NCBI RefSeq assembly: GCF_056712565.1 | Contig: NZ_CM160072.1 | DNA length: 64,000 nt | Strand: one strand, 5' to 3' | Part shown: in pieces, positions 33,001 to 36,000 of the stretch | Layout: each line of letters starts with the position of its first letter | Numbering within the stretch: the stretch's first letter is position 1 | Position numbers: made by a program

Positions 33001-36000
33001 TCTGCCTGACACTATGCGCACGGTGGTCAAGTCACCACCATTGTGCTATAAAATAAGGATGTTGTAACTAAAGTGGTTAATATTATGGCGCGTTACGATC
33101 TCGTAGACCGACTCAACACTACTTTTCGCCAGATGGAACAAGAGCTGGCTGCATTTGCCGCTCATCTTGAGCAACACAAGCTATTGGTTGCCCGCGTGTT
33201 CTCTTTGCCGGAGGTAAAAAAAGAGGATGAGCATAATCCGCTTAATCGTATTGAGGTAAAACAACATCTCGGCAACGACGCGCAATCGCTGGCGTTGCGT
33301 CATTTTCGCCATTTATTTATTCAACAACAGTCCGAAAATCGCAGCAGCAAGGCCGCTGTCCGTCTGCCTGGCGTGTTGTGTTACCAGGTCGATAACTTTT
33401 CGCAAGCAGCGTTAGTCAGTCATATTCAGCACATCAATAAACTCAAGACCACGTTCGAGCATATCGTCACGGTTGAATCAGAACTCCCCTCCGCGGCACG
33501 TTTTGAATGGGTGCATCGTCATTTGCCGGGGCTGATTACACTTAATGCTTACCGCACGCTCACCGTTCTGCACGACCCCGCCACTTTACGTTTTGGCTGG
33601 GCTAATAAACATATCATTAAAAATTTGCATCGTGATGAAGTCCTGGCACAGCTGGAAAAAAGCCTGAAATCACCACGCAGTGTCGCACCGTGGACGCGCG
33701 AGGAGTGGCAAAGAAAACTGGAGCGAGAATATCAGGATATCGCTGCCCTGCCACAGAACGCGAAGTTAAAAATCAAACGTCCGGTGAAGGTGCAGCCGAT
33801 TGCCCGCGTCTGGTACAAAGGAGATCAAAAACAAGTACAACACGCCTGCCCTACGCCGCTGATTGCACTGATTAATAGGGATAATGGCGCGGGCGTGCCG
33901 GACGTTGGTGAGTTGTTAAATTACGATGCCGACAATGTGCAGCACCGTTATAAACCACAGGCGCAGCCGCTTCGTTTAATCATTCCACGGCTGCACCTGT
34001 ATGTTGCAGATTAACCCCCGGCTTTCATACTGCCGACCATCTGTTCTGGCCGTACCCAGCGGTCAAACTCGGCTTCGCTAAGATACCCCAGCGCAAGGGC
34101 CGCAGCTTTTAAGGTCAGCCCTTCTTTATGCGCTTTTTTGGCGATCTCGGCGGCTTTGTCATAACCAATGTGGGTGTTAAGCGCAGTCACCAGCATCAGC
34201 GATTCATTGAGTAATTGATTGATTCGCTCACGATTCGGTTCAATGCCCACTGCGCAGTGTTTGTTGAAACTTTCCATGCCATCTGCCAGCAAGCGCACCG
34301 ATTGCAGGAAATTATGGATCACCATCGGACGGAAGACGTTCAGTTCAAAGTTACCGGAAGCGCCACCCATGTTGATCGCCACGTCGTTCCCCATCACCTG
34401 ACAGCAGAGCATGGTTAATGCTTCGCACTGCGTCGGGTTCACTTTCCCTGGCATGATTGAGCTGCCCGGCTCATTTTCCGGGATTGAGATTTCACCAATT
34501 CCGCAGCGCGGGCCAGAGGCCAGCCAGCGGACATCATTGGCAATTTTCATCAGTGACGCAGCCAACCCTTTCAATGCGCCGTGCGCCTGAACCAGGGCAT
34601 CACAGGTCGCCAGCGCTTCAAATTTGTTCGGCGCGGTAACAAACGGTGCACAGGTAATGACTGCCAGTTCATCTGCTACGCGACGCGCATATTCCGGATG
34701 GGTATTTAGTTCAGTACCCACCGCTGTACCGCCCAGAGCCAGTTCCGCTACGTGAGGCAGGCTGTATTCGATATGTTTGAGATTATGCTCCAGCATCGCT
34801 ACCCAGCCGGAAATCTCCTGCCCCAGCGTTAACGGCGTGGCGTCCTGCAAGTGGGTACGACCGATTTTGACGATATCGGCAAATGCGCGGGATTTTTCAC
34901 TCAGCGTCTGGGTCAGGGTTTTAAGTTGTGGAATGAGTTGCTTGCGCAGCGCCAGCAGCGCCGCAACGTGCATCGCCGTCGGAAAGACATCGTTGGAACT
35001 TTGGCTTTTGTTCACGTCGTCGTTAGGGTGAACTTTACGTTCCATCCCGCGCACGCCGCCGAGTAATTCACTGGCCCGGTTAGCCAGCACTTCGTTCATG
35101 TTCATGTTACTTTGCGTGCCGGAGCCGGTCTGCCAGATAGCCAGCGGGAATTCGTCGTCATGCTGTCCTGCCAGTACTTCATCCGCCGCCTGCCGAATGG
35201 CGCTCGCTTTCTCTTCAGACAACAAGCCTAAATCTTCATTAACTTTTGCCGCTGCGCGCTTGGTTAGCGCCAGCGCATGAATCAGTGAGGTGGGCATTTT
35301 CTCCGTCGAAATGCGGAAATGCTCCAGCGAGCGTTGAGTTTGTGCGCCCCACAGCTTATCTGCCGGGACATCAATCGCTCCCATCGAATCTTTTTCGCTG
35401 CGTACTGTATTCATGGCCTGCTCCTCACCTGATTAATTTTTTCTTTCTGTTTTGCTTTCGTTAAGCAACTTTTAGCTCACTCATTATTTACCATTTGATA
35501 ACAAACGTTTGGTCTTTCGTGCCATGTAAAAAAACCGCCCCGAAGGGCGGCTCTGTTTATTTCACACAGCGGGTGCATTGTGTGAGTTGTATCTGCTGGA
35601 AGAAGTCATTTCCTTTATCATCCACAAGGATAAACGCCGGGAAATCTTCCACTTCAATTTTCCAGATGGCTTCCATTCCTAGTTCCGGATATTCAACACA
35701 TTCCAGGCTCTTAATACTTCCCTGCGCCAATACAGCTGCCGGACCACCGATACTGCCGAGGTAGAAGCCGCCGTGTTTTTTACAGGCATCCGTCACCTGC
35801 TGGCTGCGGTTGCCTTTCGCCAGCATGATCATACTTCCGCCCTGCGCTTGCAGTTGATCGACATAAGAATCCATCCGTCCGGCGGTCGTTGGGCCAAGAG
35901 AACCGGAGGCATAACCTTCCGGCGTTTTGGCCGGACCCGCGTAGTAAATCGGATGATCTTTAATGTACTGCGGCAGCCCTTCACCGTTATCCATCCGCTC

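Follow-up and report, generated by a model that had tools for sequence, protein, structure and literature searches.

The intergenic region between rstB and tus in the 64-kb stretch of DNA analysed here (the window) contains a 23-bp sequence, AATAAGGATGTTGTAACTAAAGT (33052..33074 on the + strand), which is almost certainly the chromosomal replication fork trap site TerB, in a common natural form with G at position 7 (G7), of an E. coli close to ATCC 11775. The TerB element, the variability of its position 7 and the T136S variant of the Tus protein have all been published before, and the value of the finding lies mainly in annotation, with no new biology: TerB is experimentally characterised, yet it is unmarked in the RefSeq records examined, and a naive ORF call lengthens tus by four codons that reach into the site. 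Once recognised, TerB fixes the place of the window in the terminus region, about 75 kb past TerC, and shows how the fork trap is oriented locally. A small addition to what is known is how often each position-7 allele occurs in 5,426 complete genomes, a count that builds on the survey of five phylogroups by Goodall et al. 2021 (PMC8347550). The identity of the site, its uniqueness, conservation, orientation, context and allele frequency were established from the sequences themselves; for Tus binding, the Tus-Ter lock, fork polarity and autoregulation we draw on the literature.

A search of both strands of the window with the 23-mer of K-12 TerB, allowing up to three mismatches, returned the sequence at 33052..33074 as the sole match, with one mismatch, at the variable position 7; no match was obtained in any of 100 dinucleotide-preserving shuffles of the window, and none is expected by chance. 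The Ter core consensus for positions 6-19, GNRNGTTGTAAYKA, which is reportedly that of Duggin and Bell 2009, likewise has a single exact match in the 64 kb, the sequence GGATGTTGTAACTA within the same site, and in a control search of a 50-kb region of MG1655 it matched TerC only. The first-pass annotation, made from the sequence alone, had named TerB at this position and quoted this core, and both were borne out. When the site is aligned to TerB, G6 and positions 8-23 are intact and position 7 is the sole mismatch, so that the site is not identical to the K-12 TerB, a point that the annotation had passed over. Of the Ter sites compared, TerB is the closest with one mismatch, followed by TerA with two and TerC and TerD with five. 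At the sequence level, the features that characterise a Ter site (core consensus, G6 and a cognate tus gene) are all present, as are those specific to TerB, namely the location between rstB and tus, the same orientation as tus and the orientation of the fork trap.

Table 1. Coordinates, in window numbering, of TerB and of the genes and candidate promoter elements around it
Feature	Position	Strand	Remarks
rstB	31708..33009	+	stop codon 42 bp before Ter position 1; from the ORF list and the RefSeq annotation of MG1655 and ATCC 11775
candidate -35, TGGTCA	33024..33029	+	predicted; six bases invariant in 11 sequences
candidate extended -10, TGcTATAAA	33044..33052	+	predicted; hexamer 33047..33052, TG 33044..33045; last base is Ter position 1
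TerB, G7 allele	33052..33074	+	position 1 at 33052, G6 at 33057, position 7 at 33058, position 23 at 33074
Ter core (positions 6-19), GGATGTTGTAACTA	33057..33070	+	identical to the MG1655 TerC core
GC(6) base pair	33057		minus-strand C is the base flipping into the Tus pocket; G6 invariant in the alignment
tus	33085..34014	+	309 aa plus stop; ATG at 33085

If one mismatch to the core is tolerated, the window contains four matches versus 1.67 expected, and at least four were found in 11 of 100 shuffles. The three additional matches (24946 on the - strand, 53195 and 54992 on the + strand) were attributed to chance, each of them breaking either G6 or the GTTGTAAC block. One of these, the Ter-like sequence TGAAGTTGTAATGA at 54992..55005 (+), contains the GTTGTAA block without G6, is within chance expectation and sits in the 3' end of rsxA, according to annotation transferred from ATCC 11775. 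It does not correspond to any of the published secondary sites terK, terL, terY and terZ, of which terK and terL are located elsewhere, near terF, terG and terJ.

The conservation of the site was explored in an alignment of the rstB-tus spacer of the window with those of MG1655 (NC_000913.3) and a further nine chromosomes of E. coli, 11 sequences in all. The MG1655 TerB, AATAAGTATGTTGTAACTAAAGT (NC_000913.3, 1684226..1684248), differs from the site in the window solely by T in place of G at position 7. Within the site, only position 2 (in O157:H7) and positions 5-7 vary, and one of the variants is a third allele, in which 1 bp is inserted (...AAAGTATG...) and a G is still in register at position 6; in 11 of 11 sequences there is no change at G6, taken in register with the core, or at positions 8-23. 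Goodall et al. 2021 (PMC8347550) reported the same pattern of variation and describe position 7 as variable, without a base-specific Tus contact in either the bound or the locked structures. TerC of MG1655, found by pattern search (ATATAGGATGTTGTAACTAATAT, NC_000913.3, 1609157..1609179), lies on the same strand as TerB and also has G7. Since TerC, with this base and an identical core, is the principal arrest site and is bound by Tus in vivo (PMC8707476), G7 appears compatible with full function; for the TerB context this reading draws on TerC and on published mutagenesis cited second-hand.

Alleles of TerB were counted in 5,426 complete E. coli genomes using 30-nt queries so designed that position 7 falls within each of their 28-nt megablast words; these 30-mers replaced 50-nt BLAST queries, which were confounded by flanking SNPs. 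The window type, G7, was found in 2,140 genomes, the K-12 type, T7, in 2,342 and the 1-bp insertion allele in 264, and some 650 genomes match none of the three 30-mers, presumably as a result of other SNPs within the 30-mer. The matched alleles are present in a single copy per genome, are always chromosomal and have no annotated feature beneath them. G7 is one of the two major natural forms of TerB. One plasmid-labelled record carries the rstB-TerB-tus region and matches none of the 30-mer alleles (there were no plasmid matches); either a chromosomal contig may have been given the wrong label, or a plasmid may have picked up this piece of the chromosome.

A sequence of this kind could, in principle, be a chance or degenerate pseudo-Ter comparable to terH/I/J or terK/L/Y/Z, with no significant Tus binding or role, the more so as the one difference from K-12 TerB falls inside the 6-19 core and several of the 'Ter' sites published for E. 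coli are now considered non-functional (PMC8707476). We give this explanation virtually no credence: the differing base is at the core position known to tolerate change, the core as a whole is identical to that of the main arrest site, the TerB query found nothing in the shuffled windows, diverse E. coli show no change at G6 or positions 8-23 even though this is an intergenic site with variable flanks, and the exact G7 allele occupies the tus-proximal position in all 2,140 genomes that carry it. For the TerB thus retained, binding of Tus and polar arrest of DnaB and the replisome would be predicted from the identity to TerB at 22 of 23 bases, the core shared with TerC and the published tolerance of position 7.

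The surroundings of the site are those of TerB in MG1655. The gene order is rstA-rstB-(TerB)-tus, followed by the convergent genes fumC and fumA, as in MG1655, and over 45 kb (11001..56000) the window is 99.98% identical to E. coli ATCC 11775, whose lineage we take to be phylogroup B2. The replication terminus region, to which the first-pass annotation had assigned the window, is supported by synteny with MG1655 at 1.68 Mb together with the negative GC skew described below; dif is not in the 64-kb window, and scans of the whole window against Rfam and for tRNA genes gave no match. As that annotation had also stated, gene callers omit TerB: the RefSeq records fetched, MG1655 included, show no feature under the site.

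The identification of the downstream gene as tus, made in the first pass, is confirmed by its product, residues 1-309 of which align end to end with the crystallised Tus (PDB 1ECR, 2EWJ, 2I05 and 2I06; E = 8e-207, the value for 1ECR) and match Pfam family PF05472 with 457 bits (cutoff 22). The protein differs from the crystallised one by three substitutions, I23A, L105F and T136S, and residues E49, I79, F140, H144, G149 and R198, which we take to be lock and contact residues of Tus, are unchanged. The residue affected by T136S touches the DNA backbone near Ter position 10; the substitution has been described in the B2 strain S88 as conservative, with minimal backbone contact, and was judged harmless (PMC8347550).

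The last base of TerB and the ATG of tus are separated by ten bases, GGTTAATATT, which places the start codon 11 bp downstream of the site, in agreement with the spacing first given. Mechanical ORF calling starts the gene further upstream, at GTG 33073..33075, for a product of 313 aa. This start had been placed inside the Ter site, which is correct for two of its bases, overlapping positions 22-23, and incorrect for the third, one base beyond the site. This in-frame GTG, which no other start codon precedes after the upstream stop, is conserved, the conservation being explained by its falling in the conserved Ter positions 22-23. That translation begins there is nevertheless scarcely credible: the crystallised Tus chains are 309 aa long, begin with MARYDL and match residues 1-309 counted from the ATG, in the protein started at the ATG the Pfam model sets in at residue 9, the ATG is used in 12 of 12 RefSeq annotations fetched, and the GTG would leave a leader of only about 14 nt if transcription starts near 33059, as predicted below. 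The true start of tus is ATG 33085, and GTG 33073 is an artefact of mechanical ORF extension.

The orientation of TerB determines which forks it is able to stop. The blocking end of the Tus-Ter complex is on the side of position 1, where unwinding breaks the GC(6) pair and frees C6 for a pocket of Tus (PMC8707476; PMC8347550, legend to Fig. 1B), and the G6/C6 pair is important for the Tus-Ter lock (PMC8347550, PMC8707476). In MG1655, both TerB and TerC are read 5' to 3' along the + strand, and the site in the window has the same orientation. TerB, TerC, TerF, TerG and TerJ arrest the clockwise fork (PMC8707476), which in the TerB/TerC region of MG1655 travels toward increasing coordinates. As the orientation in the window is that of MG1655, forks moving in the + direction, from rstB to tus, would therefore be blocked and those moving in the - direction would pass; the position of G6, the indicator of polarity proposed in the first pass, likewise has + direction forks meeting the blocking face.

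The composition of the window points to the direction from which forks usually come. GC skew of the + strand is negative in 12 of 15 8-kb windows and in 40 of 64 1-kb bins (mean -0.026, p = 4e-4), and the region is therefore normally replicated from right to left, the permissive direction, with the position-23 (permissive) end of Ter facing the incoming forks. This is what would be expected of a back-up barrier situated beyond the skew switch at dif/TerC. Chi sites (5 on each strand) and KOPS (0 on the + and 1 on the - strand) are too few in the window to inform polarity. On the basis of the published mechanism, monomeric Tus produced from the adjacent tus gene would bind TerB asymmetrically, and a replisome travelling in the + direction (which corresponds to the clockwise fork of MG1655) would meet the non-permissive face. 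Unwinding by DnaB up to position 6 would then free the C opposite G33057, which would dock in the cytosine pocket of Tus, forming the lock and arresting the fork; a replisome moving in the - direction would meet the permissive face and displace Tus. In the E. coli fork trap, TerB serves as the second-line barrier behind TerC.

The same site is a candidate operator of the tus gene. A generic sigma-70 consensus scan of 32700..34300 detected no promoter, the candidate described here having been missed because that scan requires T at position 6 of the -10 hexamer. Scripted enumeration of -35/-10 hexamer pairs in the rstB-tus spacer, with a score of at least 8/12, produced one good pair, TGGTCA-17 bp-TGcTATAAA, along with an alternative -10 shifted by 2 bp. 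The -35 of this putative promoter is non-consensus (4/6) and its -10 ends in A; the -35, the -10 and the TG are invariant in the 11 aligned sequences, and the 12 bp between them hold most of the variation of the spacer at a fixed length. Such a combination of conserved hexamers and a variable spacer of constant length is the pattern that would be expected of a real promoter. Transcription of tus is predicted to start at about 33059, which is Ter position 8, and the predicted transcript would be covered from roughly -2 to +12 by Tus sitting on positions 6-20.

The overlap of TerB with the tus promoter was reportedly described by Roecklein et al. in 1991, to whom the more recent papers on the system refer for it. 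According to these papers, the tus promoter contains TerB and the synthesis of Tus is repressed by Tus itself (PMC8347550, PMC8707476, PMC12809603). The autoregulatory arrangement claimed in the first-pass annotation is thus a documented one, and it fits the sole promoter candidate found here, the overlap in the window being itself a prediction. With TerB placed over the start of tus transcription, bound Tus would occlude RNA polymerase and thereby repress the gene. A terminator scan of 32700..34300 found none between rstB and tus and only one weak hairpin, inside rstB; some tus transcription could therefore be read-through from rstAB, and Tus would have to stop such transcription as a roadblock, not through occlusion of the promoter.

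The 12-bp stretch at 33030..33041, between the candidate -35 and -10, is a hot spot of variation with two very different haplotypes, AGTCACCACCAT in the window and GGCTGTCGATAC in strains C1 and E500002, which differ at about 9 of 12 bases. An inverted repeat, GGTGGT (33022..33027) and ACCACC (33034..33039) with a 6-nt loop, overlaps the candidate -35. K-12 has a weaker form of it (GATGGT/ACCACG) and the divergent-spacer haplotype has lost it, so that it is probably not functional. As a terminator of rstB it was rejected, there being no T-run after it.

Given this second role, the site might be mainly or only an operator of tus, its fork-arrest activity rarely or never used in vivo since TerC stops clockwise forks first. 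The overlap with the predicted transcription start and a GC skew that bears no sign of + direction forks regularly arriving in the window would both agree with such a restriction, which would be a matter of emphasis and not a different identity. We nevertheless consider it improbable, in view of the published behaviour of TerB: it is a strong lock-forming site with a t1/2 of 4367 s, pausing at TerB has been observed in vivo, and strains with an ectopic, non-permissively oriented TerB were unobtainable and judged unviable (PMC8707476). The orientation of the site also fits the logic of the fork trap, and a pure operator would not need that orientation. A site that both arrests forks and controls tus therefore remains the preferred interpretation.

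The difference between G7 and T7 affects the base at the predicted position -1 of the tus transcript. It is conceivable, if very doubtful, that this polymorphism, possibly along with Tus variants such as T136S, sets lineage-specific autoregulatory set-points or lock strengths, in which case Tus abundance and the tightness of the fork trap would differ between phylogroups. Strict co-variation of G7 with T136S is unlikely because FDAARGOS_497 has G7 but T136.

Compared with TerB of K-12 (MG1655), the site in the window has the same position, with 42 bp between it and rstB and 10 bp between it and the tus ATG, the same strand relative to tus and 22 of 23 bases in common, including G6 and positions 8-23; it differs in having G at position 7, in three bases of the spacer between -35 and -10, and in being accompanied by a Tus with the I23A, L105F and T136S substitutions. 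With TerC of K-12 it shares the core GGATGTTGTAACTA at positions 6-19, G7 included, and the polarity, TerC arresting the clockwise fork (PMC8707476), whereas positions 2, 3, 4, 21 and 22 are different. Furthermore, TerC is located between yneE and uxaB, about 75 kb away, not beside tus, and has no known operator role. In Salmonella, Yersinia, Proteus, Edwardsiella and Cedecea, the tus-vicinal 'Ter1' is 74-83% identical to E. coli TerB, and a Ter site directly upstream of tus that keeps C6 is conserved and has been proposed as the ancestral arrangement in Enterobacterales (PMC8707476). The tus-vicinal Ter is the innermost barrier in the 'type I' traps of these other Enterobacterales; in the 'type II' trap of E. 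coli TerC lies inside it.

Downstream of TerB, tus (+, stop codon 34012..34014) and fumC (-, 34011..35414, with its 3' end at 34011) converge with an overlap of 4 bp, without an intergenic terminator, and the same 4-bp overlap is present in MG1655 (tus end at 1685188; fumC at 1685185..1686588). A frameshifted IS4 lies between fumC and the class I fumarase gene in four strains that otherwise match the window at 100% identity over 5 kb; in E. coli MS8345 it occupies 4817..6162 of L011, which is equivalent to the fumC-fumA spacer near 35415..35556 of the window. This element, which splits the match in these strains, is absent from the window and was set aside, its location between fumC and fumA not being near TerB. 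The class I fumarase gene itself, at 35557..37203 (-), is named 'fumB' by RefSeq/PGAP in ATCC 11775 and MS8345. We take the K-12 gene at the equivalent position to be fumA, and the name 'fumB' looks like a naming inconsistency.
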